A stretch of DNA of 64,000 bases from an uncultured Bacilli bacterium. Its GTDB lineage: Bacteria; Bacillota_I; Bacilli_A; RF39; UBA660. The translations under genes and the position numbers were made by a program. Below, piece by piece: positions 2,819 through 63,824 of this stretch. Numbering within the stretch: position 1 is the stretch's first letter; every line of letters starts with the position of its first letter. Where the stretch lies: assembly GCA_944363635.1 (NCBI GenBank), contig CALVUP010000002.1, positions 21,974-85,973 on the forward strand, in the 5' to 3' direction. A model generated the notes under the pieces. The model had not been told where the DNA came from. It worked only from the letters and a program-made list of their open reading frames with translations, and ran no database searches.

Positions 2819-3639
2819 CAAATCACCTCACTCATTGCTAAAACAAACTGATCAAATAATAATTTTATATTTACATTATAACGTAATTTTTTTAAACAAT
2901 CATCGATTATAATTATTTTTTTAGAAATTTTTTTCAGAGTTGACTGTCTAGAATTTTCTATCGCACTACGATTTTCGTTAAATAAATAAATATAATAGCT
3001 TTCCAATTCCTTTAATTTTTCTATTAAAGATTCTTTATCAAGAAAATACCAATTTGTATCTATATAACCTAAAGCGTTTTCGCCGTAATGGTCAATAGTA
3101 GAAGCTAAATCAATCACTTCTTGGCTAAAACTTTTTTTACAAACGGTATGAGAAAGCACAAGACATTGACACCTAGAAGAAATCGTACGAATTACATTAT
3201 ATATATTATTGGTTAATAAAATAGCTATTATATTCTCAGGGGGTTCTTCTAAAAACTTTAAAATTGTATTTGCTGAGGATTTATTTAAAAACTCGGCACC
3301 ATCAATAATATACACCAAATATTTTCCATAGATTGGTTTAATACTGAATTCCTTTTGTAAATCCAAGAGTTGTTCTTTTCGAATGATACGATTTATAGGT
3401 TCAATAATTTTTAATTCCGGATAACTATAATTAGATACCAATCGATCAATGTCTAATTCAGACTCATATTTATTTTGATCTAAAATTTTTTTTACGAATT
3501 CTAAAATCACATCACGATAATTTTCTATATTTCTACACTCAACTAAAAAAGCATGAGAAAGCTTGTCCTCACTTATTCGTTTATTCATATATTTTGCAAA
3601 TTCCGGATAATCCTTATCATACTTATTAAACATAAACAC
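2818..3639 (-). CDS. holB: DNA polymerase III delta-prime subunit
   Basis: AAA+ clamp-loader-like sequence (LSHAFLV..., IIDGAEFL...). In the holB position upstream of ricT. Confidence 0.65.
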   Translation of the reverse strand: MFMFNKYDKDYPEFAKYMNKRISEDKLSHAFLVECRNIENYRDVILEFVKKILDQNKYESELDIDRLVSNYSYPELKIIEPINRIIRKEQLLDLQKEFSIKPIYGKYLVYIIDGAEFLNKSSANTILKFLEEPPENIIAILLTNNIYNVIRTISSRCQCLVLSHTVCKKSFSQEVIDLASTIDHYGENALGYIDTNWYFLDKESLIEKLKELESYYIYLFNENRSAIENSRQSTLKKISKKIIIIDDCLKKLRYNVNIKLLFDQFVLAMSEVI

Positions 3640-3640
3640 C

Positions 3641-3829
3641 TCAATACACTACTAGTAATAACATAATAAGAGCGAACAAAGCTGGTGCTCCAAGCAAACT
3701 AACCAAAGCGATCGTAATAATATTTATTGGTATTGCCATATTAAAAGATGTTGCAATTAAATTATAACCATATAAAATAACAAAACCAAATACAATTCTT
3801 TTTAATACATTTAATATTCCATTTTTCAT
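3641..3829 (-). CDS. bofA: BofA-family small membrane protein (pro-sigma-K processing inhibitor-like)
   Basis: 62 aa, two TM segments, PIN..T.A....LG.P..AL pattern matching B. subtilis BofA. Lies downstream of recR as bofA does in B. subtilis. Confidence 0.45.
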   Translation of the reverse strand: MKNGILNVLKRIVFGFVILYGYNLIATSFNMAIPINIITIALVSLLGAPALFALIMLLLVVY

Positions 3830-6524: not shown

Positions 6525-6956
6525 TCATCTTTTTTCTTTAAAAAAGTTAGTTAACAAAATAGCGCATTCTTGAACTCGAACATTTTTTCGTATTTTTGTG
6601 TTTTTAAATATTTGATCAATGATTTTTAGATTCTTTTTTTCTGGTCTTGAAGCCCCATAAAACACGCAATCTATTCGAGATTGTTCTATGGCACTGGCAC
6701 ACATTGGACATGGTTCTAAGGTGGTGTAAATAGTACATCCATTTAATCGCCAATCTTTCTTTTTTCTACATGCCTTTTTAATAGCAATAATTTCAGCATG
6801 TGCATACACTAATTTATTTTTTTCTTTTTGATTATATCCTTTTCCTATGATTTTTCCATCAGAATCAACCACAATTGCTCCTACTGGAACTTCTTTTTTC
6901 TTATAAGCTTTTTTCGCTTCCAAAATTGCGAAATGCATATAATATTTATCATTCAT
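6525..6956 (-). CDS. tadA: tRNA-specific adenosine deaminase
   Basis: CDA zinc motifs HAEIIAI and PCPMC. Start placed at M5 because the ORF-track N-terminal codons overlap the ffs terminator. Confidence 0.85.
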   Translation of the reverse strand: MNDKYYMHFAILEAKKAYKKKEVPVGAIVVDSDGKIIGKGYNQKEKNKLVYAHAEIIAIKKACRKKKDWRLNGCTIYTTLEPCPMCASAIEQSRIDCVFYGASRPEKKNLKIIDQIFKNTKIRKNVRVQECAILLTNFFKEKR

Positions 6957-6968
6957 AAAATCACCCAT

Positions 6969-7050
6969 AAAAAATGACGCACATAAAAATGAATTATTAA
7001 GGCTGCTACTTTCCAGTCCTGACCTGATTCTAATTATTCTTATTGCGTCT
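6969..7050 (-). ncRNA. ffs: small SRP RNA (4.5S-type, ~80 nt)
   Basis: Minus-strand read 5'-GACGCA..AUCAGGUCAGGACUGGAAAGUAGCAGCC..UGCGUC-UUUUUU closely matches SRP RNA domain IV (E. coli CAGGUCAGGUCCGGAAGGAAGCAGCC) with a GGAA tetraloop. Closing helix GACGCA/UGCGUC, 3' U-tract, and a TTGAAA-17-TATTAT promoter placing the TSS at about 7050. Confidence 0.7.
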
Positions 7051-7055
7051 TAGTT

Positions 7056-7084
7056 ATAATAATATATTTCAGAATAATTTTCAA
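7056..7084 (-). promoter_or_regulatory. sigma-A type promoter of ffs (TTGAAA-17 nt-TATTAT)
   Basis: Reverse complement of 7056-7084 reads TTGAAA, 17-nt spacer, TATTAT, about 6 nt upstream of the GACGCA RNA 5' end. Confidence 0.55.
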
Positions 7085-7101
7085 GTTTTTTATTCGTTCA
7101 A

Positions 7102-7117
7102 TGTTTCACGTGAAACA
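7102..7117. promoter_or_regulatory. parS site 1 (TGTTTCACGTGAAACA)
   Basis: Perfect 16-bp match to the Spo0J/ParB parS consensus, inside a 26-bp perfect palindrome (7097-7122). Confidence 0.85.
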
Positions 7118-7170
7118 TTGAATATATTATCGAATAAACTTTACTTTTTTTTGTAAATGATTAAAAAATT

Positions 7171-7184
7171 ATTTCCCAGGAAAT
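7171..7184. promoter_or_regulatory. NBS-like site (ATTTCCCAGGAAAT, one mismatch)
   Basis: 13/14 match to ATTTCCCGGGAAAT, in repeat unit 1. Confidence 0.5.
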
Positions 7185-7217
7185 ATTTTAAATAAAACGA
7201 GTATTTATTACTAATAA

Positions 7218-7233
7218 TGTTTCACGTGAAACA
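7218..7233. promoter_or_regulatory. parS site 2 (TGTTTCACGTGAAACA)
   Basis: Perfect parS consensus in repeat unit 2. Confidence 0.85.
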
Positions 7234-7283
7234 TTGAATATATTATTAAATAAACTTTATTTTTTTATAAATGATTAAAAATT

Positions 7284-7297
7284 ATTTCCCAGGAAAT
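7284..7297. promoter_or_regulatory. NBS-like site (ATTTCCCAGGAAAT)
   Basis: 13/14 match to the NBS, in repeat unit 2. Confidence 0.5.
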
Positions 7298-7330
7298 ATT
7301 TTAAATAAAATGAATGTTTATTATTAATAA

Positions 7331-7346
7331 TGTTTCACGTGAAACA
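7331..7346. promoter_or_regulatory. parS site 3 (TGTTTCACGTGAAACA)
   Basis: Perfect parS consensus in repeat unit 3. Confidence 0.85.
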
Positions 7347-7398
7347 TTGAATATTTTTTTTTGAACATAGCCTATTTTGAATAAATATTCAAAATTTT

Positions 7399-7412
7399 AT
7401 TTCCCGGGAAAT
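7399..7412. promoter_or_regulatory. NBS site (ATTTCCCGGGAAAT; 22-bp perfect palindrome 7396-7417)
   Basis: Perfect NBS consensus 10 bp downstream of the gyrA stop. Confidence 0.6.
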
Positions 7413-7426
7413 AAAAAGAAGAAATT

Positions 7427-9886
7427 TTAAACTTCTTCTTTTTCTTCCTCAATATCAATATTATTTGTGTCTTCTTCCTGTTCTACAATAGCAATTGTTG
7501 ATACTTTTTGATTATCCTTTAAATGAATTAATCTTACACCTTGCGTAGATCTTTTTAATGTTGATACTTGTTCAAGAGGCATTTTTATAATAATTCCACT
7601 ATCAGTAATAATCATAATATCAAAGTTTTTGTTTTTATCTACACACTTCAAAGAAACCATCATTCCATTTTTCTCTGTGATATTTAATGCTTTAACACCT
7701 TTGCTACCTCTATGTGTTAATCGATACTCATCAATATCTGTTTGTTTTCCATATCCATTTTCAGTAACAACTAAAATATTACTATCTGTTTGAACGACTT
7801 CTCCACTAATAACACAACTATTGTCTAAGTCAATTCCTTTTACTCCAGATGCTGATCGGCCCATTACACGAATTTCGCTTTCTTTAAATCGAACCAATCG
7901 ACCATTATTCGCACCAATAATAATTTCATTATTACCAGTTGTCGCGCGTACACTAATTAATTCATCTTCTTCACGAAGAGTAATTGCGAGTTTTCCTGAT
8001 TTTCGAATTCGATCAAATTCGTTTAAAACCGTTCTCTTAACAATTCCGAATTTAGTAATAAACACTAAGTATTTATTTACTTCGTTATCACGAGATAGTC
8101 CAATTATCGAACTAATGTTCTCATTTTTCTCTAGTGGTAATAAATTGACAATCGGCAATCCCTTTGATTGTCTACTAAATTCTGGCACTTCATAACCTTT
8201 TATTCTATAAACTCTACCTTTATTCGAGAAGAATAATAAATAATCATGCGTTTTCATAGATATCAAGTGTTCGACAAAATCCTCCCCATTGGTAGACATC
8301 CCTTTAACACCAACTCCACCTCTATTTTGTGTTTTATATGTATTGTATTTCAATCTCTTTATATATCCTTTATTCGTCAATGTAACAATTACATCTTCAT
8401 TTGGAATTAACGATTCATCTTCTATATAATCAATAGCTGTCATATCAATGCTTGTTCTTCTTTCATCTCCATATTTATTCTTAATTTCAAGCATTTCTTT
8501 TTTAATAATTTCAAGAACTTTAGCTTCACTAGCTAAAATAGATCTTAATTCATCAATTTCTGCTAATAATTCTTTTAATTCATTTTCAATTTTATCTCTT
8601 TCTAAGCCAGTTAATCTTCTAAGTTTCATTTCAAGTATAGCTTGTCCTTGAGGTTCTGTTAAAGCAAAACGACTCATCAATCCTGCTAAAGCTTCAGTAT
8701 CACTTTTAGATTCTCTTATTAATTTAACAATAGCATCAATATGATCTAAAGCAATCTTTAAGCCTTCTAATATATGTGCTCTTTTTTCATCTTTATCCAA
8801 ATCAAATTTTGTTCTTCTAATAATGATTTCTTTTTGATAATCAATATATTTAGCAATAATATCTTTTAAACCTAAAGTTTTAGGGACTCCTTGATCTAAC
8901 ATCAAAAAGATAATACCATAATTTGTTTGAAAAGCTGTATGCTTATATAGATTGTTTAATACAACTTGTGGATTTGCATCTTTTTTTAATGTTATGGTTA
9001 TTTTGACACCATCTTTTAAATCCGTATGATAATCTGTAATGCCATCAATAACTTTATTATGAACCAATTCTGCAACTTTATTTTTTAATTCTAAAGTATT
9101 AATTCCATAAGGAACCTCATCCACAATAATATAATGTCTACCATTTTTTTCTTCAATAGTAGCTCGACTGCGAATAGTAATAGTTCCTCGTCCGGTTTCA
9201 TAGGCTTTTTTAATTCCACTATTTCCTAAGATAATTCCGCCCGTTGGAAAGTCTGGACCCTTTATATATTGCATTAATCCATCTAAATCAATATCCGGAT
9301 TATCAATGTATGCTACACACCCATCGATAACTTCTCCTAAATTATGAGGTGGAATATTCGTAGCCATACCAACAGCAATTCCCATAGTCCCATTTACTAA
9401 AATATTAGGAAAACGAGAAGGAAGAATCTCTGGTTCTTTCTCAGATTCATCAAAGTTAGGTATAAAATTTACTGTATCTTTATTAATATTTCTTAATAAT
9501 TCTAAAGAAATTTTAGAAAGCCTTGATTCGGTATAACGCATAGCTGCAGCCCCATATCCTTCGATATTTCCGAAATTACCATGGCCATCTACAAGCATAT
9601 AACGATAAGAAAAATCTTGTGCCATTCTTACCATAGCTTCATAAATAGAAGAATCTCCATGTGGATGATATTTTCCCATAACATCTCCAACAATTCTAGC
9701 ACTTTTTTTATGAGGTTTATCTGGAGTATATCCTGATTCATACATAGAATATAAAATTCTTCGATGTACTGGTTTTAATCCATCTCTTAAATCAGGTAAT
9801 GCTCTAGCAACAATAACACTCATTGAATACTCAAGAAATGAATCTCTAACTTCTTTAACTATATTGTTTTTTTCTAATCTATCCAT
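7427..9886 (-). CDS. gyrA: DNA gyrase subunit A
   Basis: 819 aa, catalytic tyrosine region AAMRYTE, C-terminal beta-pinwheel repeats. Confidence 0.95.
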
Positions 9887-14854: not shown

Positions 14855-16225
14855 TTATTTTTTTGAACAACTATCAATTTCTTTTTGTAAAATATCAATA
14901 ATTTGCCGTAATTCAGGATTTACTTTTAGTTCCCTTTCTATTTTATCACAAGAATGGATGACTGTCGAATGATCTTTACCTCCAAATTCAATTCCTAGTT
15001 TAGGAAAAGACTCATCTGTGCAATTCCTACAAAGATACATAGCAATTTGTCTTGGAAAAGCAACATTATAGTTTCTTTTCTTGCTTTTTAGATCTTCTAT
15101 GGATATTTTAAAATATTCTGCTACAATTCTTTGTATTTTATGAACATCATCTTTTTCATATGAACCTTTACTAACATAATCCGTTAGCGCATCCATTGCT
15201 AGATCAACTGTGATATCACATCCCCCCATCATAGAAGAATAAGCAAGCAAACGATTAATAGATCCTTCCAATTGTCTTACATCACCACTAACATTAAATG
15301 CAATATATTCAATTACATCTTCTGGAATATTTTTTTCAATGATGGAAGCTGCTATTTTTTTCTTCACAATGGCAACTCTTAAATCAAAGTTTGGTGGTTG
15401 AATATCAACCGTAATTCCCCAACAAAATCTTGTTTTTAATCGATCTTCAAGTTTTTTTAAATCATCCGGAGAACGATCAGAAGAAATAATAATTTGCTTG
15501 TTACTATTATATAAAGAATTAAAAGTATGAAAAAATTCTTGTTGCGATTGTGTCGTTCCACCTAAAAACTGGATATCATCGATAATTAAAACATCAATAT
15601 TACGATATTTATCTTTAAAAAGATCGATTACATCTAGATTATTACTATTATTTTTTTTATTAATTCCAACAAAATCTTCAATAAATTTATCACTTGTAAC
15701 ATATAAAACCTTTTTATTCGAATGTTCCGTTATATAATTTCCAATTGCATGCATTAAATGTGTTTTTCCTAAACCACTATTCCCATATATAAATAAAGGA
15801 TTATAAATACTACCTGGATTTTCCGCAACTGCAACAGCTGTCGCATGAGCTAATCGATTACTATTTCCAACGACAAAATTTTCAAAAGTATATTTTTTAA
15901 TAAGATTGGTCTCAAAATGATTGTTTATTTCATTGTGTATATTATTATTTATTTTTTCTTCTTGCTTCATATCCATGATTTCATCTTGAAGAAAATATTC
16001 AATATTTTTATAATCCGTATAAATTGTGGATAAAGTTTCATCAATAATATCTTTATATTTATCATGAAGATGCGTTTTGTGGATAGACATTGGCACAATT
16101 ACTCGAAAAATACCATTATCTATATCATATAAAGAAGTGTCTTTAAACCATGTTTCATAGGATAATGTTGATATTTTATCTTTAATTTTTTCTAAAAAAT
16201 TGTCCCAAATGATTTTATAATTCAT
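14855..16225 (-). CDS. dnaA: chromosomal replication initiator DnaA
   Basis: AAA+ Walker A GNSGLGKTHL and C-terminal DNA-binding domain. Start taken at MNYKIIWDNF (ATG 16223-16225) because the track's upstream codons encode the RBS GGGAGGTG. Confidence 0.95.
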   Translation of the reverse strand: MNYKIIWDNFLEKIKDKISTLSYETWFKDTSLYDIDNGIFRVIVPMSIHKTHLHDKYKDIIDETLSTIYTDYKNIEYFLQDEIMDMKQEEKINNNIHNEINNHFETNLIKKYTFENFVVGNSNRLAHATAVAVAENPGSIYNPLFIYGNSGLGKTHLMHAIGNYITEHSNKKVLYVTSDKFIEDFVGINKKNNSNNLDVIDLFKDKYRNIDVLIIDDIQFLGGTTQSQQEFFHTFNSLYNSNKQIIISSDRSPDDLKKLEDRLKTRFCWGITVDIQPPNFDLRVAIVKKKIAASIIEKNIPEDVIEYIAFNVSGDVRQLEGSINRLLAYSSMMGGCDITVDLAMDALTDYVSKGSYEKDDVHKIQRIVAEYFKISIEDLKSKKRNYNVAFPRQIAMYLCRNCTDESFPKLGIEFGGKDHSTVIHSCDKIERELKVNPELRQIIDILQKEIDSCSKK

Positions 16226-16321
16226 TTTTTTCAACACCTCCCCGCCTGAAAATAAAGGTTTGATTACCATTATTCTAAAACAAATACACAGAAAAATAAA
16301 GTAAAAAAAACATAATTTTTT

Positions 16322-54823: not shown

Positions 54824-55084
54824 ATGTATGAAAGTATTAAAGATAGAGTGATTGAAGTAGCCAATTATATGCTGAAAAGCAAACAAACGATTCGAGAAAT
54901 TGCTAAAAAGTTTCATATAAGTAAAAGTACGATTCATAAGGATATATCCTATCGGCTTAGATTTATCGATTATTCTTTATATGAAGAAGTAAGTAAAGTT
55001 GTTAAAGAACACAAAGATATAAGGCATATAAGAGGAGGCGAATCGACAAGAATTAAATATTTACAAAAAAGAAAAGGAAGGTAA
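54824..55084 (+). CDS. spoIIID: sporulation transcriptional regulator SpoIIID
   Basis: 86 aa. VIEVANYML..KQTIREIAKKFHISKSTIHKD and IRHIRGGESTRIKY align with B. subtilis SpoIIID; mbl immediately downstream as in B. subtilis. Confidence 0.85.
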   Translation: MYESIKDRVIEVANYMLKSKQTIREIAKKFHISKSTIHKDISYRLRFIDYSLYEEVSKVVKEHKDIRHIRGGESTRIKYLQKRKGR

Positions 55085-55089
55085 AAAAC

Positions 55090-56079
55090 ATGGCAAAAGA
55101 TATAGGAATCGATCTAGGAACTGCAAATATATTGATCTATTTAAAAGGAGAAGGCATTGTTTTAAATGAACCAAGTGTTGTGGCATTGGATGTTGAAAAC
55201 AATCGAATTCTAGCTGTAGGAAAAGAAGCAAATGCAATGTTAGGGAGAACACCAGGTAAAGTGAAAACCATCCGACCTATTAAAGATGGAGTTATTGCAG
55301 ATTTTGAGGTTACGCAAGCAATGTTAAATGAATTTATAAAAAAAATTAGTGGAAAAAAGGGACTAATACGACCAAAAATATTAATTTGTTGTCCTTCCAA
55401 TATTACACAAGTCGAAAAAAATGCGATCAAAGAGGCTGCTGAATGTACAGGAGCTAAAAAAGTATTTTTAGAAGAGGAACCAAAGGTTGCTGCCATTGGA
55501 ACGGGTATGGATATCAATACACCAAGTGCAAATATGATTGTAGATATCGGAGGAGGAACAACCGATATTGCAGTATTATCTATAGGAGGAATTGTTACTT
55601 CTTTATCAATAAAAACAGCTGGAAATACATTGGACCGAGATATTAAAAAATATATTAAACAAAAATATAAACTATTAATAGGAGATAAAACTGCAGAAAA
55701 TATAAAAATAAAAATAGGCTCTGTGCATAAACCAGATCAATCCGAACGTATGGAAGTAAAAGGCAGAAATCTAATGAGTGGACTTCCAAATACAATTGAA
55801 ATTACTTCAGAAGAAGTAGAAGAAGCAATTCGAGATAGTATCTTAGAGTTAGTAAAAGCAATCAAATCAGTCTTAGAAATCACTCCACCAGAATTATCTG
55901 CTGATATTGTGGATAAAGGATTGGTATTAACAGGCGGTGGAGCTTTAATTAATGGATTACCAGAATTGTTAGAAAAAGAGTTAAAAATACCTGTAGTTAT
56001 TGCTGAATCCCCTCTTACGAGTGTTGCTGATGGTACGGGTGTTTTATTAAATCATTTAGACTGGCTATCTTCAGAATAA
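55090..56079 (+). CDS. mbl: MreB/Mbl actin-like cell-shape protein
   Basis: MAKDIGIDLGTANILIY, 329 aa actin fold. Confidence 0.9.
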   Translation: MAKDIGIDLGTANILIYLKGEGIVLNEPSVVALDVENNRILAVGKEANAMLGRTPGKVKTIRPIKDGVIADFEVTQAMLNEFIKKISGKKGLIRPKILICCPSNITQVEKNAIKEAAECTGAKKVFLEEEPKVAAIGTGMDINTPSANMIVDIGGGTTDIAVLSIGGIVTSLSIKTAGNTLDRDIKKYIKQKYKLLIGDKTAENIKIKIGSVHKPDQSERMEVKGRNLMSGLPNTIEITSEEVEEAIRDSILELVKAIKSVLEITPPELSADIVDKGLVLTGGGALINGLPELLEKELKIPVVIAESPLTSVADGTGVLLNHLDWLSSE

Positions 56080-56140
56080 GATAAAAATTTGGCTATTTTC
56101 TATATTTTTGCTATAATCAATATAGAAAGAAGGATTTTTT

Positions 56141-57217
56141 ATGATTTCTAAAGAAGTAATTGCAATGGGAGTCATTGTACTTGTAACTATGATTTTTAGC
56201 GCATGTATTATGCCATTTATGAAAAAAATTGCTCATCATATTGGAGCAATTGATTATCCTAGTAAAAAAGAAGGAAATAGACATATTCATCAAAAAGCAA
56301 CACCAAAATTAGGAGGCGTTGGTATTTTCCTAGCTTTTCTTTTTGGATATATGTTATTTGGGCATCATAGTATAAAAATGAATGCTATCTTAATAGGAAG
56401 TTTTATTATTGTATTAACAGGAATTATTGATGATATTAAACCGATTAAAGCATCTCAAAAATTAATTGGACAAGTTATAGCTGCTTTAATTATTGCATGC
56501 TACGGTAAAATATTATTACAAAACATATCGGCTTTTGGTTATGTAATTGATTTTGGAATATTTGCTTATCCCATTACAGTGATTTTTATTGTTGCTTGTG
56601 TCAATATCATTAATTTAATTGATGGGATTGATGGTTTAAGTGGAGGAATTTCTAGTATTTTTTATTTAACCGTTGGGATTATTTCTTTATCGCAGGCGCG
56701 CTATGGATCTTTAGAAATCCTACTTGCATTCATTATGTTAGGAGCAACACTTGGATTCTTAATTCATAATTTTAATCCAGCTTCTATATTCGCAGGAGAC
56801 TGCTCGATGTTTATGGGATTTTTAATTGCTGTTATTACTCTATTAGGATTTAAAGCCACTGCATTAACTTCATTTTTCATTCCTATTATTATATTAATCA
56901 TTCCAATATTAGATACTTGCTTTGCGATTATAAGAAGAAAACTAAAAGGAAAACCAATCTTTTCCGCAGATAAAGATCATATTCATCATCAATTAATTAA
57001 AATGAATTTATCTCAAAAAACAACAGTATTAATTATTTATTTTGTTGATCTTTTATTTGCTATTGCGACACTGATTTATGCATTAAAAGATCCAAAGATC
57101 GGAATGCTGATCTATATTGTGTTATTTGTAATTATATTAATCTTTGTTTGTAATACAAATATTATTTCTGATAAACTACCTAAAAAATTAAAGAAAATTA
57201 CGAAAACAAAAAAGTAA
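56141..57217 (+). CDS. MraY/WecA-family polyprenol-phosphate sugar-1-phosphate transferase (TagO-like)
   Basis: 10-11 TM, NIINLIDGIDGL motif. Confidence 0.65.
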   Translation: MISKEVIAMGVIVLVTMIFSACIMPFMKKIAHHIGAIDYPSKKEGNRHIHQKATPKLGGVGIFLAFLFGYMLFGHHSIKMNAILIGSFIIVLTGIIDDIKPIKASQKLIGQVIAALIIACYGKILLQNISAFGYVIDFGIFAYPITVIFIVACVNIINLIDGIDGLSGGISSIFYLTVGIISLSQARYGSLEILLAFIMLGATLGFLIHNFNPASIFAGDCSMFMGFLIAVITLLGFKATALTSFFIPIIILIIPILDTCFAIIRRKLKGKPIFSADKDHIHHQLIKMNLSQKTTVLIIYFVDLLFAIATLIYALKDPKIGMLIYIVLFVIILIFVCNTNIISDKLPKKLKKITKTKK

Positions 57218-57297
57218 TTTTTTTTATGAATAATAAATGGAAAATTATTCCAATTATGATAAAATAATATATATATAAAAGATAGAGGGGATGATAT

Positions 57298-58029
57298 ATG
57301 TTAAATTTTATAATTGGTGAAGATAACACAAAATTTTCTGCACGCACCAAACAAATCATTGAAAATTTTATGATGAATTATGATATTGAATATCATATGG
57401 ATTGCTTTCCAAATTATGGGAAGGATTTTAAAAAGGCGGCCAAAGCAGAAAGTGGATTTAAAATATATTTTCTTGATATCAAAACAGATGAAGGTTCAGG
57501 ACTTGATGCAGCTCGAATGATTCGAGAAGAACTAGATGATTGGGTATCCATTATTGTTATTATTACTTCTTATACAGAGTATAAATATGAAGCGTTAGGA
57601 AATAGATTATATTTATTAGATTTTATATCTAAGTTTGATGATTGCGAGAAAAGAATTAAAGAATGCTTAGAAATCGCTTTAAAAAATTATGATAATAGAC
57701 ATAAATCTTTAAGCTTTTCTTATAATCATATCATAAAGAAAATTGAATATAGAAACATTGTCTATATTGAAAAAGAGCAAGAGAGTAAAAGATGTATTAT
57801 CAACACAACCTATGGAGATCATTTTATAAACGATACATTAAATAATGTTTATGCAAAATTAGATAAACGCTTTATCAAAGTAAATCGAAGTTTAATTGTA
57901 AATTCTGATTTTATTAGAGAATATGATGTAAAAAATAATAAGATCATATTTTCAAATGGAACCTATACACATTTAATATCAAAAACAGGTAGAAAGGAAT
58001 TAATGAAGTATGTTGGAAGTAGTAATTAA
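57298..58029 (+). CDS. LytTR-family response regulator (AgrA/ComE-like)
   Basis: Receiver-like N-domain (FLDIKTDEGSGLDAARMI) plus C-terminal LytTR DNA-binding domain; 243 aa. Confidence 0.75.
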   Translation: MLNFIIGEDNTKFSARTKQIIENFMMNYDIEYHMDCFPNYGKDFKKAAKAESGFKIYFLDIKTDEGSGLDAARMIREELDDWVSIIVIITSYTEYKYEALGNRLYLLDFISKFDDCEKRIKECLEIALKNYDNRHKSLSFSYNHIIKKIEYRNIVYIEKEQESKRCIINTTYGDHFINDTLNNVYAKLDKRFIKVNRSLIVNSDFIREYDVKNNKIIFSNGTYTHLISKTGRKELMKYVGSSN

Positions 58030-59299
58030 ATTTTTATGTAGTTTAATTGGTTCTGTAGCCGGTATTCTAATAATCGAAAATATTTCTAAAATAAAATTTA
58101 AACTCAATTTAAAAAACATAATATTATTAATACTTTTATCAGTAATTACAACATTACAATTTAAAACAGAATATACTATAACCATATCTTTAACTGTATA
58201 TATACTTATAATAATGATATATAAATGGTTATTTAATATGAGTTATAAAAAATCTGTATTATTGGGTGGAGTAGTATTAATAATTACTTCGATGTCCGAT
58301 TTAATGTGGGCAATAATATTAAAACAATTTTTTACTAACGATCAATTAAGAGAACCAACTATTTTATTTTTAATGTTTAATATGTTAGTATATTCAAGCG
58401 CATATTTTTTATCTCATGTGTTTAATTATAAACGATTTCTAACAAAATTTATTGCCAAAACAGATAATAGTAAAATATATAGTCAGTTTATTTTTATAAT
58501 TTTAACAGTGGTTGTTTCGTGTTTAATAATATATGATATTACATCTCTTAAGATTATTGGAATGGAACAATATATAATTACATTATCTACTTTTGTTTTA
58601 ATGTTAATCCTGGTTTTGATTTATATTAAATCAAAAAACGATAATGATAAGTTACAAGAACAATTCGATTATTTATATAATTATTCTAAGAATTATGAGG
58701 ATTGGATTACCAAAGAACAATTAAATATTCATGAAAACAAAAATCAATTGATTGTATTACGCGATATGGTTAAAAAGAATGAAAAAGCGGTAAACTACAT
58801 TAATGAGATCTTGGAAGAAGATTTTGTTATAGAAGATAAATGGATTGGACAATTATCCAATATTCCAAAGGGTGGGTTAAAAGGATTATTATATTATAAA
58901 TTAATTACGATAGAAAAAGACAATCTAAACTTTTGTGTAGATATTAGTAAAAATGTTAAAACAAAGTTAAAAAAATTACAGAAAGATCAATTAAAAGATA
59001 TTAGTCATATCATTGGTATATTTATAGACAATGCGATAGAAGCTTCTGTAAATTCTAAGAAGAAAATGTTCTCTTTAGAGATTTATTGCATAAAAAAAGA
59101 ATTGAATATAGTAATTACCAATTCATTTGATGGCCAAATTGAACTTAATAAAATTAATAATAATGGATATTCTACCAAAGGAAAAGACCGTGGTAAAGGA
59201 TTGTATTTTGTCTCTAAAATAAAAGAGAAAAATCCAAATATACTTACGGAAGCACATATTATTAATAATTATTTTGTACAGAAAATTATTATAAAATAA
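58010..59299 (+). CDS. AgrC-type (HPK10) membrane sensor histidine kinase
   Basis: Six N-terminal TM helices; C-terminal GHKL ATPase with N-box FIDNAIEAS and G-box GKDRGKGLY; 429 aa; 20-nt overlap with the upstream RR gene. Confidence 0.75.
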   Translation: MLEVVIKFLCSLIGSVAGILIIENISKIKFKLNLKNIILLILLSVITTLQFKTEYTITISLTVYILIIMIYKWLFNMSYKKSVLLGGVVLIITSMSDLMWAIILKQFFTNDQLREPTILFLMFNMLVYSSAYFLSHVFNYKRFLTKFIAKTDNSKIYSQFIFIILTVVVSCLIIYDITSLKIIGMEQYIITLSTFVLMLILVLIYIKSKNDNDKLQEQFDYLYNYSKNYEDWITKEQLNIHENKNQLIVLRDMVKKNEKAVNYINEILEEDFVIEDKWIGQLSNIPKGGLKGLLYYKLITIEKDNLNFCVDISKNVKTKLKKLQKDQLKDISHIIGIFIDNAIEASVNSKKKMFSLEIYCIKKELNIVITNSFDGQIELNKINNNGYSTKGKDRGKGLYFVSKIKEKNPNILTEAHIINNYFVQKIIIK

Positions 59300-59303
59300 A
59301 AAT

Positions 59304-59337
59304 AAAACTCCTATCATCTTTGAGTTTTATTTTTTTT
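59304..59337. terminator. bidirectional terminator between the kinase gene and agrD
   Basis: AAAACTC/GAGTTTT stem followed by T-run; A-run on the other side serves the convergent agrD transcript. Confidence 0.55.
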
Positions 59338-59342
59338 ATAAT

Positions 59343-59459
59343 TTATTTGAAATAAGATGGCGCTTTGGGTTCATCAATAAAGAACCAAATACATCCCATA
59401 CTTGCTGCGGAAGTGGCTAACATCGCAACTGCAGCTAATACTTTTGCTACTTTTTTCAC
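59343..59459 (-). CDS. agrD: AgrD-like autoinducing-peptide precursor (38 aa, GTG start)
   Basis: Minus-strand ORF MKKVAKVLAAVAMLATSAASMGCIWFFIDEPKAPSYFK. Perfect RBS GGAGG 7 nt upstream of GTG. Amphipathic leader, Cys-containing core CIWFF, acidic/Pro recognition tail IDEPKAP. Lies 58 bp downstream of agrB; too short for the ORF track. Confidence 0.8.
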   Translation of the reverse strand: MKKVAKVLAAVAMLATSAASMGCIWFFIDEPKAPSYFK

Positions 59460-59517
59460 TTTACTACCTCCTACTACTATATTTATCTAAATTTATAAAA
59501 ATAAATTAGATACAAAA

Positions 59518-60105
59518 TTAAATATGTTTGTAATTCGCATAAGGCTGTTTAAACAATTTATAAAACAATGGATTAATCATAATACTTTCTAATACAAGAG
59601 CAATCAGAAATAGATTGGCTATAGAAGTATTAAAATGCATAATACAAATGAAATAGATAATAGCAATAACAATAGTAGTTATCTTTCGAATCATACGTAT
59701 TTTTTTATCTCGGAAAGGTCGCTTAACTGTATCTGCAGGTGCAAAGAAGAAATAGGAAATGATGCAACCGATAGCGATTAAACACATAATAGTTTTATTA
59801 AGTTGGATATATTGAAATAATAATGGGAATCCAATAAAGAACAAACTTGATGTAATTAAGCATTGATAACTTTTCTCTGCATGAAACCCAAACCCAGTAT
59901 ATCGAATAATATTAAATAATATTAAAGTGAAAAAAACTTCTTTTTCTATATGAAAAACAATAGCGAATAGAATAATTAGAATTAATTTTGATAAAGTTAA
60001 ATATAGTCCTTCAAGTCCATATAATAGTTTTTCTTTGTCTTCTTCAGAATAATCATTATATTTTAAAATTAAATGATAAAAATTATGAATTACTACTTTT
60101 TTCAT
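59518..60105 (-). CDS. agrB: AgrB-family membrane endopeptidase
   Basis: 195 aa multi-TM. RYTGFGFHAEKSYQC aligns with S. aureus AgrB RRHAHGAHAPSSFWC, conserving catalytic His and Cys at identical spacing. FAPADTVKRPF and ESIMINPLFYK also align. Confidence 0.85.
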   Translation of the reverse strand: MKKVVIHNFYHLILKYNDYSEEDKEKLLYGLEGLYLTLSKLILIILFAIVFHIEKEVFFTLILFNIIRYTGFGFHAEKSYQCLITSSLFFIGFPLLFQYIQLNKTIMCLIAIGCIISYFFFAPADTVKRPFRDKKIRMIRKITTIVIAIIYFICIMHFNTSIANLFLIALVLESIMINPLFYKLFKQPYANYKHI

Positions 60106-60345
60106 CTTACTACCTCTTGCATTTAAGTCTAATATAAAAACGTAATAAAAAAAGAAAAAATCTTTAAAAAAATAAAGAGTAGAACTTTTGATATAAATAA
60201 TTTACAGATAGTGAATAATGTGTTCAAAAAATGCTTTAAATTGACTATTTAAGGAAAAAACTATAGAAAGGCGTTAGCTTTGATATAATAAACATGTTCA
60301 CTCATTTAGGCCGAATAAGGAACAGAAGAATAATTAGTAAAGGAG

Positions 60346-60582
60346 ATGTGGCGAGAAGTGAGAGGTAGAGTAAAATGGTTCAATAATGAAAAGGGATATG
60401 GATTTATTGAATATAAAGAGAATGAAGATATCTTTGTTCACTATTCTGCGATCAAACAAGAAGGATACAAAACTTTGTCGGAAGGGCAATTAGTGGAGTT
60501 TAAATTGTTAGAAACAACCAAAGGATACCAAGCCTTAGATGTAACTGTAGTAAAGGATGCAGTTACAACGCCTAGTAAATAA
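60346..60582 (+). CDS. cspA: cold-shock protein (CspA family)
   Basis: [16 protein letters not shown]1 motif, FVHYSAI RNP2. Start may be GTG 60358 (MRGRVKWFN). Confidence 0.85.
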
Positions 60583-60691
60583 GAAAAGTAAGAATTTTGT
60601 TCTTACTTTTTTTATGGTTTTTTTGTGAAAAAAAGAATATGTATTGGTTAAATTTATTAAATATGCTATAATTTAGGTGGAGGATGATAAT

Positions 60692-61216
60692 ATGAAATTA
60701 AATATTAGAGGTGAAAAAATTGACATTACAGCTGCTATGAAAGATTATGCATTAGAAAAGTTACAAAAGATAGAAAAATATTTTAACGATTCTAGTGAAA
60801 TAACAGCGAATGTCTTAGTAAAACTTAGAAATCATATGCAAAAAGTAGAAATAACTATATTTTTACAATCATTAATATTAAGAAGTGAAGAAGAACAAGA
60901 AGATTTTTATGCTGCAATTGATAATTCAATTGATAAATTAGAACGTCAAATTAGAAAAAATAAAACCAAATTAGAAAGTAAAAATCGTGTAAATAAAAGT
61001 TTAAGCTTTGATTTTGAATCTGAAGATTCCGAAGAAGAACAAAAAGTAGTAAAACGTAAAAGTGTAGAAGTAAAACCAATGGATGAAGAAGAGGCAATGT
61101 TACAATTGGAACTTTTAGGACATCAGTTTTATCTATATAATGACATAGATACTGGTAAAGCAACAGTTATCTATAAAAGAAAAGATGGAAATTACGGAAT
61201 AATTGAGGCGGAATAA
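60692..61216 (+). CDS. hpf: ribosome hibernation-promoting factor (long form)
   Basis: MKLNIRGEKIDIT... S30AE N-domain plus C-terminal dimerisation domain; GGAGGA RBS. Confidence 0.85.
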   Translation: MKLNIRGEKIDITAAMKDYALEKLQKIEKYFNDSSEITANVLVKLRNHMQKVEITIFLQSLILRSEEEQEDFYAAIDNSIDKLERQIRKNKTKLESKNRVNKSLSFDFESEDSEEEQKVVKRKSVEVKPMDEEEAMLQLELLGHQFYLYNDIDTGKATVIYKRKDGNYGIIEAE

Positions 61217-61277
61217 GAGAAAAACCTTTTATTCTTCCTTTTTTTTTGATAGAATATTACTTAGGAGATGAGGATGA

Positions 61278-63824
61278 ATGAACTTGTTAAAAAAAGTATT
61301 TAGTCATGATTATAAAGAATTAAAAAGGTTTACGGTTATTGCGGATAAAATAGATGCTTTAGATGAAGAAATGAGAGAGCTTAAAGATACAGAACTTAAA
61401 GCCAAAACAGAAGAATTTATAGAACGTTTAGAAAAAGGTGAAACCCTAGAGGATATCTTGGTAGAAGCTTTTGCAGTTGCACGTGAAGCAAGTTATCGTG
61501 TTATTAAACAAAGACCCTTTTATGTACAGTTGTTAGGTGCTTTAGCAATTCATTATGGAAACATTGCTGAAATGAAAACAGGAGAAGGAAAAACTTTAAC
61601 CTGTGTTATGCCTGCCTATTTAAATGCACTTACTAAAAAAGGTGTTCATATCATTACCGTTAATGAGTATTTAGCAGGACGTGATGCGCAGTGGATGGGA
61701 GGTATTTATAACTTTCTAGGATTAACAGTAGGAGTCAATAAAAGAGATTTAACTCCAAAAGAAAAGAAAGAACAATATGCTTGTGATATCATGTATACTA
61801 CGAATAATGAATTGGGATTTGACTATTTAAGAGATAACATGGTAGTAAAAGCAGAAAATAGAGTACAAAGAGGATTAAATTTTGCAATTGTCGATGAAGT
61901 AGACTCTATCTTAATTGATGAAGCTAGAACACCACTAATCATATCTGGTGGACAGATGAAAAACGTATCTTTATATGAAGAAGCAGATAAATTTGCTAAA
62001 AGTTTAAAGTTAGATAAAGATTTTACGTATGATCCAAAGGTAAAAAGTGTTAATTTAACCGACGAAGGGCATAGAAAAGCAGAAAAGTTTTTCCATGTAG
62101 ACAATTTATACGATTTATCACAAGCCTCTCTTGTACATTTTGTAAATCAAGCCTTAAGAGCAAATTATGCAATGCATAACAATATTGATTATGTAGTACA
62201 AGACGGTAAAATTGTAATCGTTGATCAATTTACTGGACGTTTAATGAAAGGGAGAGCTTTCTCTGATGGACTTCATCAAGCTATAGAAGCTAAAGAAGGC
62301 GTTAAAATCAATCAGGAAACAAAAACACTTGCGACCATTACATTCCAAAATTTATTTAGAATGTATTCAAAATTATCTGGAATGACAGGAACAGCAAAAA
62401 CCGAAGAAGAAGAATTTAGAGAAATATACAATATGTACGTTATTCCGATTCCTACAAACAAAAAAGTAATTCGTGTAGATGCTCCGGATTTAGTATATGC
62501 AACCAAGGATGCTAAATTTAAAGCCATTGTTAATGTTATTGAAGAACTTTATAAAAAAGGACAACCTGTATTGGTTGGTACTGTAGCGATTGAAACCAGC
62601 GAATTATTATCAAAAATGTTAAAGAAGAAAAAAATTCCACATGAAGTATTAAATGCCAAGAATCATGAAAGAGAAGCTGAAATTATTTCTAAAATCGGGC
62701 AACATAAATCAGTAACAATTGCTACAAATATGGCAGGACGTGGAACCGATATTACTTTGTCTGATGAAACAAGAAAATTAGGTGGACTTTATGTTATTGG
62801 TACAGAAAGACATGAATCTCGTCGTATTGATAACCAATTAAGAGGACGTTCAGGAAGACAAGGGGATCCAGGATATACACAGTTCTTTGTGTCTATGGAA
62901 GATGATTTAATGGTTCGTTTTGGTTCTGATCGAATCAAATCTATGATGACATCTTTAGGTTTTGGAGATCATGCGATAAGAAGTAAGGCTTTTACGAAAT
63001 CAATATCATCCGCACAAGCTCGTGTAGAAGGAAATAACTATGATGTTCGTAAACATTTATTAGATTATGATGATGTTATGAATAGTCAAAGAGAAATTAT
63101 TTATGGAAAAAGAAATGAAATTATTGATAGTGAATCTATTCATGGTATGATCTTAGACTCTATGAAAAATCATGTATCTGATACGGTTATGTCTCATACT
63201 TCACCGGATGGAAGTCTTACAGACGATGATAAAAAAGAAATTTTAGATTATGTAAATGAAAAATTATTAAAGAAAGATATTGAATTAAACGATATTGAAA
63301 AAGAAGTTTTAAAAACAGAAAAGAAAACGAAGAAAACAAAAGAAGTAAAAATCACTCCTGACCAACTTATTGATTATATTTATAATGCTTTAGTAGAAGA
63401 ATATGAAGCAAAAATAAAAGAATTACCAGATGAAATTGTCAATGAATTCGAAAAAGCAATTAGTTTAAATGTAATTGATAATTATTGGATGGAACACATC
63501 AATACTATGTCTCATCTAAGAGAAGGAATTGGTCTTCGTGGTTATGCTCAAGAAGATCCACTTAGAGCTTATACGATCGAAGGATATGAACTTTTTGATC
63601 AAATGAATCAAAAGATTGATGCGGATATTACAGCGTTCCTTCTTAGAGCAGAGGTAAGACAAAACATTGAAAGAAAAGAACAAACAAGAGTCAAGATTAC
63701 AAATGATATCGATAAAGAAGGAAAGAAAATTCCTAAAAGAGTAGGTAAAAAAATAGGAAGAAATGATCCATGTCCATGTGGTTCAGGGAAGAAATATAAA
63801 CAATGTTGTGGAAAGAATGCATAA
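61278..63824 (+). CDS. secA: preprotein translocase ATPase SecA
   Basis: 848 aa, DEAD-like motor, C-terminal zinc finger CPCGSGKKYKQCCG. Confidence 0.95.
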   Translation: MNLLKKVFSHDYKELKRFTVIADKIDALDEEMRELKDTELKAKTEEFIERLEKGETLEDILVEAFAVAREASYRVIKQRPFYVQLLGALAIHYGNIAEMKTGEGKTLTCVMPAYLNALTKKGVHIITVNEYLAGRDAQWMGGIYNFLGLTVGVNKRDLTPKEKKEQYACDIMYTTNNELGFDYLRDNMVVKAENRVQRGLNFAIVDEVDSILIDEARTPLIISGGQMKNVSLYEEADKFAKSLKLDKDFTYDPKVKSVNLTDEGHRKAEKFFHVDNLYDLSQASLVHFVNQALRANYAMHNNIDYVVQDGKIVIVDQFTGRLMKGRAFSDGLHQAIEAKEGVKINQETKTLATITFQNLFRMYSKLSGMTGTAKTEEEEFREIYNMYVIPIPTNKKVIRVDAPDLVYATKDAKFKAIVNVIEELYKKGQPVLVGTVAIETSELLSKMLKKKKIPHEVLNAKNHEREAEIISKIGQHKSVTIATNMAGRGTDITLSDETRKLGGLYVIGTERHESRRIDNQLRGRSGRQGDPGYTQFFVSMEDDLMVRFGSDRIKSMMTSLGFGDHAIRSKAFTKSISSAQARVEGNNYDVRKHLLDYDDVMNSQREIIYGKRNEIIDSESIHGMILDSMKNHVSDTVMSHTSPDGSLTDDDKKEILDYVNEKLLKKDIELNDIEKEVLKTEKKTKKTKEVKITPDQLIDYIYNALVEEYEAKIKELPDEIVNEFEKAISLNVIDNYWMEHINTMSHLREGIGLRGYAQEDPLRAYTIEGYELFDQMNQKIDADITAFLLRAEVRQNIERKEQTRVKITNDIDKEGKKIPKRVGKKIGRNDPCPCGSGKKYKQCCGKNA

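Follow-up and report, generated by a model that had tools for sequence, protein, structure and literature searches.

Here, we propose that the locus at 57298-60105 of a 64,000-nucleotide stretch of DNA from an uncultured Bacilli bacterium (GenBank assembly GCA_944363635.1, contig CALVUP010000002.1; this whole stretch is called the window throughout) is a complete and apparently functional agr-type peptide quorum-sensing system, arranged as two convergent transcription units, a reading that we hold at a probability of roughly 85%. This is based on gene content, on the membership of the proteins in the expected families, on conserved catalytic residues, on a gene order kept across a clade, and on a peptide core that varies in step with the receptor. 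A first-pass annotation of the window had claimed that all four agr functions are present, and this is borne out: four open reading frames (ORFs), encoding a response regulator (RR), a histidine kinase (HK), the signal precursor AgrD and the membrane peptidase AgrB, are confirmed at the following positions, each with its family confirmed by profile search.

57298-58029, plus strand: AgrA-like RR of 243 aa, with a receiver and a LytTR DNA-binding domain (Pfam, NCBIfam and PDB alignment).
58010-59299, plus strand: AgrC-like sensor HK of 429 aa, with a polytopic membrane sensor (residues 1-206), DHp and GHKL domains (Pfam and PDB alignment).
59343-59459, minus strand: AgrD precursor of 38 aa, with leader residues 1-22, Cys23, core IWFFI and a D-E-P follower (TIGR04223).
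59518-60105, minus strand: AgrB membrane peptidase/cyclase of 195 aa (PF04647, 4e-30).

The locus is not a single co-directional agrBDCA operon, as RR and HK lie on the plus strand and agrB and agrD converge on them from the minus strand. Nothing in the domains, catalytic residues or hydrophobic segments points to decay.

The HK, whose reading frame overlaps that of the RR by 20 nt, matches HATPase_c_5 (Pfam, 2.7e-8), and its only PDB matches are to Staphylococcus aureus AgrC (4bxi and 6e52, 1e-11), with H241 aligned on the AgrC H-box histidine and with the DNAIEAS and STKG-RG-GL boxes matching those of AgrC. At least six hydrophobic segments lie within residues 1-206. In alignments of 66-80 relatives, H241, E242, N245, D340, N341, G386, G391, G395 and G397 are at least 97% conserved, and the sensor half of the protein is far more variable than the cytoplasmic half. 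The LytTR domain of the RR is recognised at 7e-13 (Pfam, 49 bits against a cutoff of 22.6); the full-length protein aligns to ComE (4cbv) at 3e-7, with D60 falling in the phospho-Asp region of ComE, and D9, D60 and K112 are at least 97% conserved among 68 relatives. Four related loci (L018, L040, L045 and L052) carry two tandem AgrC-like HK genes between RR and agrD.

AgrB matches PF04647 with 104.9 bits (cutoff 23), has five hydrophobic segments, and retains an invariant H75 and C82 in 80 relatives, residues which we take to be the equivalents of H77 and C84 of S. aureus AgrB. It has 661 homologues, some of which carry the NCBI name 'accessory gene regulator B family protein', and the identical sequence occurs on 19 metagenomic contigs. 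The window's AgrB, HK and RR are all present, without names, in a collection of 15 billion proteins from which the window's exact AgrD sequence is missing, and gene callers have skipped the AgrD ORF in most assemblies of the window's species. The best NCBIfam matches of the RR, HK and AgrB are AgrA, AgrC and the AgrB family, with scores of 58 (equivalog cutoff 400), 66 (cutoff 500) and 97 (cutoff 282), respectively. Since these scores fall far under the staphylococcal equivalog cutoffs, the three proteins are, as far as profile scores tell, family-level members and no orthologues of staphylococcal AgrA, AgrC and AgrB.

The small ORF downstream of agrB matches the NCBIfam AgrD family TIGR04223 (24.5 bits, cutoff 19). 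Among the profiles named in the first-pass annotation, PF04647, LytTR and HATPase_c_5 therefore have their matches, while the AgrD profile PF05931 finds no hit (nor does any other Pfam family match the ORF) and TIGR04223 takes its place. The gene begins 58 nt downstream of agrB with a GTG behind GGAGG, a start position which reads ATG in L007, L008 and L019. That annotation had also made its reading depend on the conservation of agrD in related genomes, where the ORF is kept directly after agrB in 83 of 86 loci. When 76 genomes are anchored on the cysteine, G-1 and C0 are invariant, A-4 occurs in 75 and S-3 in 73; a [D/E]-E-P follower is invariant, with E+7 and P+8 invariant or nearly so, and exactly five hypervariable residues separate it from the cysteine in every sequence. 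There are 74 distinct cores among these 76 genomes, 57 of which have W at +2, and position +5 varies no less than the positions of the ring.

Could this ORF instead encode a secreted peptide or a lipoprotein-like signal peptide with no relation to processing by AgrB? Its leader does look like a Sec or lipoprotein signal, with a charged N-region, hydrophobic residues 7-21 (MKKVAKVLAAVAMLATSAASMG directly before the Cys), a cysteine that follows a small residue, and an invariant A-S-x-G-C, and it is the one product of the four for which the Pfam match was not obtained. Set against this are the TIGR04223 score above cutoff, the constant position directly downstream of agrB, and an E-P at a fixed distance from the cysteine with variability confined to the five residues next to it, which together are the signature of an AgrD. 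Clostridial AgrDs with similar signal-like leaders are known. On the strength of the follower motif and the TIGR04223 match we reject the lipoprotein reading, which we regard as extremely improbable.

How far does the system extend beyond this genome? A scan that took one genome per species turned up 197 relatives, and 80 of their loci were retained, all from metagenome-assembled genomes (MAGs) of uncultured gut Bacilli, which carry labels such as 'Mycoplasma sp. CAG:877', 'Clostridium sp. CAG:417', 'Candidatus Faecimonas' and uncultured Bacilli/Tenericutes. Every related locus with enough flanking sequence (about 70 species-level MAGs) shows the same order, mreB-tagO-RR-HK> <agrD-agrB csp-hpf-secA, in which agrD and agrB converge on RR and HK. 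Identity to the window is 60-75% for the housekeeping neighbours, 45-55% for AgrB, 45-62% for the RR and 31-40% for the HK. The low identity of the HK against the high identity of its neighbours is, in these alignments, the classic agr pattern, and the locus is, on the same comparison, an old and vertically inherited part of the core genome with a fast-evolving receptor. The first-pass annotation had called the convergent layout unusual; this does not hold, as the layout is invariant across the clade and is also found on Clostridium plasmids.

The comparison that bears most directly on signal and receptor is within the window's own species, where the genome at locus L002 carries a second allele. 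Between the two, the differences are concentrated in one element:

57723-59391, both strands: hypervariable 'pherotype' cassette, comprising the 3' third of RR, the whole of HK, the hairpin between the convergent genes, and agrD from its Cys codon to its stop (window compared with L002).

About 357 of the 375 differences over 7 kb fall inside these 1.67 kb, with sharp boundaries and with flanks that differ at 0-3 positions per 100 nt. The cassette starts within the LytTR-coding part of RR and ends at the Cys23 codon of agrD. In RR codons 142-243, nucleotide divergence is 10.5%, with 28 synonymous and 3 non-synonymous codons; since this part of the cassette differs mostly synonymously, it appears to be under purifying selection as a working regulator. 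In the HK, 35% of residues are changed in the sensor (1-210) and 10% in the cytoplasmic half (211-429). The AgrD leader and AgrB are identical in the two genomes, and from Cys23 to its end AgrD reads CIWFFIDEPKAPSYFK in the window and CMWVFLDEPQALKSFK in L002. An exact look-up of the RR found no third allele in the window's species. As judged from these two alleles, the cassette is a pherotype polymorphism resembling the agr specificity groups, and the co-variation of the AIP (autoinducing peptide) core and tail with the HK as a single cassette provides strong indirect evidence that the HK is the cognate receptor of the AgrD peptide.

The same observations bear on the possibility that the adjacent RR and HK form an unrelated LytTR two-component system (for example of the bacteriocin or stress type) that happens to lie beside an orphan agrBD, with the true sensor encoded elsewhere, as for Clostridioides difficile agr1 and in Clostridium perfringens. 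Clostridia are well known for orphan agrBD loci and for sensors encoded apart from them (PMC12312760; PMC4453554), the two units here would be transcribed separately from opposite strands, and the window yielded no operator shared between them. Yet adjacency is kept in all related genomes with enough flank in spite of their deep divergence, the best solved and NCBIfam matches of the HK are AgrC, and the AIP-coding part of agrD has been exchanged together with the HK as one sharp-edged cassette, which is expected only if the two are matched. We therefore consider an unrelated two-component system very unlikely.

In light of the conserved AgrD architecture, what might the signal be? The first-pass annotation had predicted a thiolactone peptide containing CIWFF. 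This string is part of both candidates that we favour, but the ring may have either five residues (CIWFF) or six (CIWFFI). Since five residues separate the cysteine from D-E-P in all 76 sequences and position +5 is itself variable, a six-residue CIWFFI macrocycle appears at least as likely as CIWFF. In staphylococcal AgrDs the D-E directly follows the ring. Tail-less and six-residue AIP rings are documented (PMC8251862; PMC12312760), and in C. acetobutylicum and R. cellulolyticum tail-less six-residue rings rearrange to homodetic cyclopeptides (PMC8251862). By analogy, the signal of the window may also be tail-less and rearranged in this way.

The scheme that we propose, in which the peptide structure, termination at the hairpin, promoters under RR control and the regulon are all predicted, would run as follows. 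From the first unit, agrB-agrD on the minus strand, AgrB would act as a membrane Cys/His peptidase, cutting off the follower with its D-E-P and closing the core into a ring through Cys23, to give a CIWFF or CIWFFI macrocycle that would be exported and lose its leader. The second unit, RR-HK on the plus strand, would be expressed from its own conserved extended -10 promoter, and its polytopic AgrC-like kinase would sense the peptide, autophosphorylate on H241 and phosphorylate D60 of the LytTR regulator, thereby altering transcription. Likely targets of the regulator would include the agrB promoter (autoinduction), and both units would end at one AT-rich hairpin.

The regions upstream of the two units contain the following elements.

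57238-57265, plus strand: promoter-like site of the RR-HK operon, with TGGAAA, a 16-nt spacer and the extended -10 TGATAAAAT (promoter scan).
60106-60233, minus strand: agrB upstream (promoter) region (comparison with relatives).
60234-60254, both strands: conserved near-palindrome CCTTAAATAGTCAATTTAAAG, located between the promoters of csp and agrB, with a T run after it when read in the sense of agrB (aligned in the four closest relatives).

An extended -10, TGnTAAAAT, located about 35-40 nt upstream of the RR start, gives the most shared 8- and 10-mers of the tagO-RR spacers, being found in 31-36 of 65 relatives' loci against a shuffle maximum of 7-19. As this is the most conserved element upstream of RR across the relatives, it points to a separate and probably constitutive promoter for the receptor operon. 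The window's copy of this -10 is at 57257-57265. The promoter-like site also shares sequence with the palindrome TGGAAAATTATTCCA (57238-57252), which extends over its -35 region and is kept in L007 and L019 as well. This palindrome may serve as an operator, in which case the dimeric regulator that binds it could be one distinct from the LytTR RR.

Upstream of agrB, a tandem repeat, TTCGACA-N3-TTCGACA, occurs in 49 of 81 relatives (2-3 copies with a 10-bp period, about 100 nt upstream of the agrB ATG), in loci among L009-L086. With as many as 2 mismatches allowed, 814 kb of sequence hold 49 matches; every one of them is in the agrB-csp spacer, although this accounts for only 2.4% of the bases, and 47 are in the orientation of agrB. 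We infer that this repeat is the best candidate operator for the RR, an assignment that is weak for the present genome, as the window has only TTGAACACATTATTCACT at 60210-60227, where most relatives carry the repeat; autoinduction at the agrB promoter is predicted on the same basis. The first-pass annotation had pointed to paired 9-bp LytTR direct repeats as a feature to look for upstream of RR and agrB, and none was found in either region of the window (seed 6). The near-palindrome CCTTAAATAGTCAATTTAAAG is an invariant block in the four closest relatives, is unique in the window and matches on both strands; binding of a protein, or formation of a leader/insulator hairpin, are possible roles for it. 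More distant relatives have apparently compensating variants of it (CCGTA...TACGG).

It had also been suggested that the near-identical ribosome-binding regions of agrB and agrD reflect coupled or duplicated initiation signals. The near-identity is real: the window has just two occurrences of the 24-nt pattern GAGGTAGTAA-NN-TGAAAAAAGTAG, one at agrB (60093-60116) and one at agrD (59447-59470), with none expected. It is, though, confined to this species, as the initiation regions of agrB and agrD agree at 15.6 of 31 nt within the genomes of 64 relatives and at 15.3 of 31 nt in a between-genome control, and the window's own 25 of 31 nt lies inside the control range (maximum 26). Hence we reject duplication or coupling as a conserved feature, and the similarity most plausibly reflects a strong Shine-Dalgarno sequence and an M-K-K-V start common to both genes.

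Between the convergent stop codons lies one further element.

59298-59334, both strands: AT-rich hairpin, a candidate bidirectional intrinsic terminator (folding).

It consists of a 13-bp AT-rich stem and an 11-nt loop, with folding energies of -9.6 kcal/mol (plus) and -10.7 kcal/mol (minus), z-scores of -5.3 and -4.5, and no equal among 200 shuffles. At this position the closest relatives (L007 and L019) carry other sequences, yet these too fold into hairpins with A and T runs on either side, and 57% of 58 relatives have a hairpin with z < -2 in a convergent gap of median 30 nt and minimum 5 nt. Thus, of the bidirectional terminator proposed earlier, what stands is an RR-first two-component system converging on agrBD over a hairpin that folds on both strands, with its role as terminator a candidate one. 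The agrD-HK gap of L035 ('Mycoplasma sp. CAG:877') harbours, at 6857-7947, an IS3-type transposase broken up over several ORFs, and the flanking agr genes are intact.

Several observations weigh against the system as we have drawn it. The receiver domain of the RR is weak, with 20.4 bits against a Pfam gathering cutoff of 30.2 for Response_reg. With no more than 2-3 G-C pairs, the hairpin goes undetected in a consensus terminator scan, for which fewer than 3 such pairs are too few, and the gaps of about 40% of relatives are too short for, or without, a significant hairpin. The window's subclade has no clear RR operator upstream of agrB or RR, with no recognisable TTCGACA copy, and the repeat in the other relatives may bind another factor or belong to the regulation of csp, as its 10-bp period differs from LytTR spacing. 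Characterised LytTR sites are spaced by roughly 21 bp. Finally, the organism is uncultured, so that the whole functional reading rests on sequence. As for an RNAIII-type RNA, no Rfam family is found in 56000-61500 except for a sub-threshold cspA fragment, and the gene that diverges from agrB is csp; clostridial and listerial agr systems lack RNAIII too (PMC12312760).

The short gaps raise the question of whether convergence is itself regulatory, with antisense read-through of induced agrBD into HK-RR, or polymerase collision, giving negative feedback on the receptor, and the converse. A gap of 5-50 nt that in many relatives lacks a significant hairpin, an AT-rich and weak hairpin in the window itself, and a layout strictly kept over a deep clade and recurring on Clostridium plasmids would all be in keeping with this. 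But the window and its closest relatives all keep an A/T-flanked hairpin although its sequence varies between them, suggesting selection for termination and not for read-through, strict synteny may merely reflect vertical inheritance, and the insertion sequence in the L035 gap came without loss of the flanking genes. On balance we think a regulatory role of convergence unlikely. Slightly less so, though still doubtful, is the broader notion that the convergent layout is an adaptation, by which the receptor operon directly adjoins the 3' part of agrD that encodes the AIP, the two making up one swappable cassette, with possible transcriptional interference through the short gap in addition. If this were true, the cassette would unite in one contiguous stretch the core and follower of the signal, the terminator, the kinase and the regulator's DNA-binding end, and one recombination between the conserved AgrD leader and the RR receiver could swap it, switching the pherotype and leaving AgrB untouched.

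When compared with S. aureus agrBDCA, the proposed system shares the same four functions and families, an HK that among solved structures is most like AgrC, in an alignment that takes in the H-box His and the N and G boxes, an AgrD with a Cys and hydrophobic core followed by an acidic, Pro-containing follower, and a hypervariable peptide and receptor with specificity alleles within the species. It differs in having two convergent units with RR before HK, where S. aureus has one co-directional P2 operon (B-D-C-A), and in an AgrD leader that is signal-peptide-like where the S. aureus leader is amphipathic. The variable unit differs as well: here AgrB lies outside it, and the whole HK and the 3' part of RR lie inside. 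In S. aureus the variable region spans the C-terminal part of AgrB, AgrD and the AgrC sensor.

Clostridial systems offer further parallels. The systems of C. perfringens (AgrBD), C. acetobutylicum and R. cellulolyticum likewise have a signal-peptide-like leader and a core of C-x-W-x-x type, that of C. perfringens being CLWFT. The virR-virS operon of C. perfringens is also RR-first with a LytTR-type regulator, but it is unlinked from agrBD, whereas the window's agrBD and RR-HK are adjacent. The agr2 locus of C. difficile R20291 has been described as 'agrACDB, the reverse order', with strands not stated (PMC3754575). We fetched this locus (L096) by a published primer sequence and found all four genes co-directional, with agrD before agrB, and we therefore reject it as a precedent for the convergent layout. 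It resembles the window in being a complete clostridial-type locus of a gut Firmicute with the order RR, HK, AgrD, AgrB and with RR first and overlapping HK, and it differs in lying on one strand and in having an AgrD of 46 aa without a Cys, with Ser at the equivalent position. C. difficile agr2 is accessory, being found in some strains only (PMC7497831), whereas the window's locus is clade-wide. Within 2958-3734 of L096, AgrD2 has SASSWVAHQAKEP as its core region, so that its product would be a Ser-based lactone, and the AgrB frame shows up as a pair of adjoining ORFs at 3157-3480 and 3489-3734.

The organisation of clostridial agr is known to differ from that of staphylococci, and agrBD and agrCA can be separate operons (PMC12312760), although the literature that we searched yielded no explicit description of convergent agr operons. 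A tblastn search with AgrB against plasmids returned 30 records, and the eight that we inspected show four gene orders: the canonical B-D-HK-RR (C. taeniosporum and E. raffinosus), the convergent B-D> <HK-RR as in the window (two of the eight, C. estertheticum pDSM14864-80 and C. tagluense pCM022-183), RR-HK> <agrD agrB>, and <RR agrD-agrB-HK>. In the two convergent plasmid loci, known from RefSeq annotation only, an RR of LytTR type precedes and overlaps the GHKL HK on which agrB-agrD converges. They differ from the window in being plasmid-borne, in adjoining ABC-transporter genes and in having a convergent gap of less than 10 nt, and they are distant from it, with 35-37% identity for AgrB and about 29% for the HK over its C-terminal half. 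Hence, as far as these annotations tell, the convergent layout is unusual only against the staphylococcal paradigm, and is already visible in RefSeq. Three C. estertheticum plasmid loci (L091, L093 and L094) have other agr orders; one of them has agrD on the strand opposite agrB, beside a CPBP-family protease, and another lies directly upstream of six tandem gallidermin/nisin-family lantibiotic genes.

In its genomic context, the locus is chromosomal and sits among housekeeping genes, and the tagO-like gene (Glycos_transf_4, PF00953), csp, hpf and secA named in the first-pass annotation are all confirmed. The origin-proximal position that it claimed is equally upheld. The gene dnaA lies at 14855-16270 on the minus strand with dnaN also on the minus strand, yidC, jag and mnmE are plus-strand genes, and the sign of the GC skew switches at about 16 kb, so that the window contains the replication origin, at about 16-17 kb. 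The agr locus is about 41-44 kb from this oriC, with agrBD head-on to replication. Immediately upstream of tagO and agr, at 54824-56079, are spoIIID, an M23 peptidase (spoIIQ-like) and mreB/mbl, and from spoIIID and the spoIIQ-like peptidase the organism is probably a spore-former. Agr systems regulate sporulation in Clostridia (PMC8251862).

Our findings leave the known workings of agr unchanged, the locus being an ordinary new member of a well-known system, and their added value is moderate, consisting of a clade-wide signal catalogue and a within-species cassette. A large clade of uncultured gut Bacilli carries, in its core genome and close to the origin, an agr system whose predicted signals are almost entirely species-specific, with at least one species having two pherotype alleles. 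The result is a list of some 75 peptide signals, all predicted, from organisms that have no cultured representative, and the clade is a natural setting in which to test how a signal and its receptor diversify together where AgrB is no part of the variable unit.

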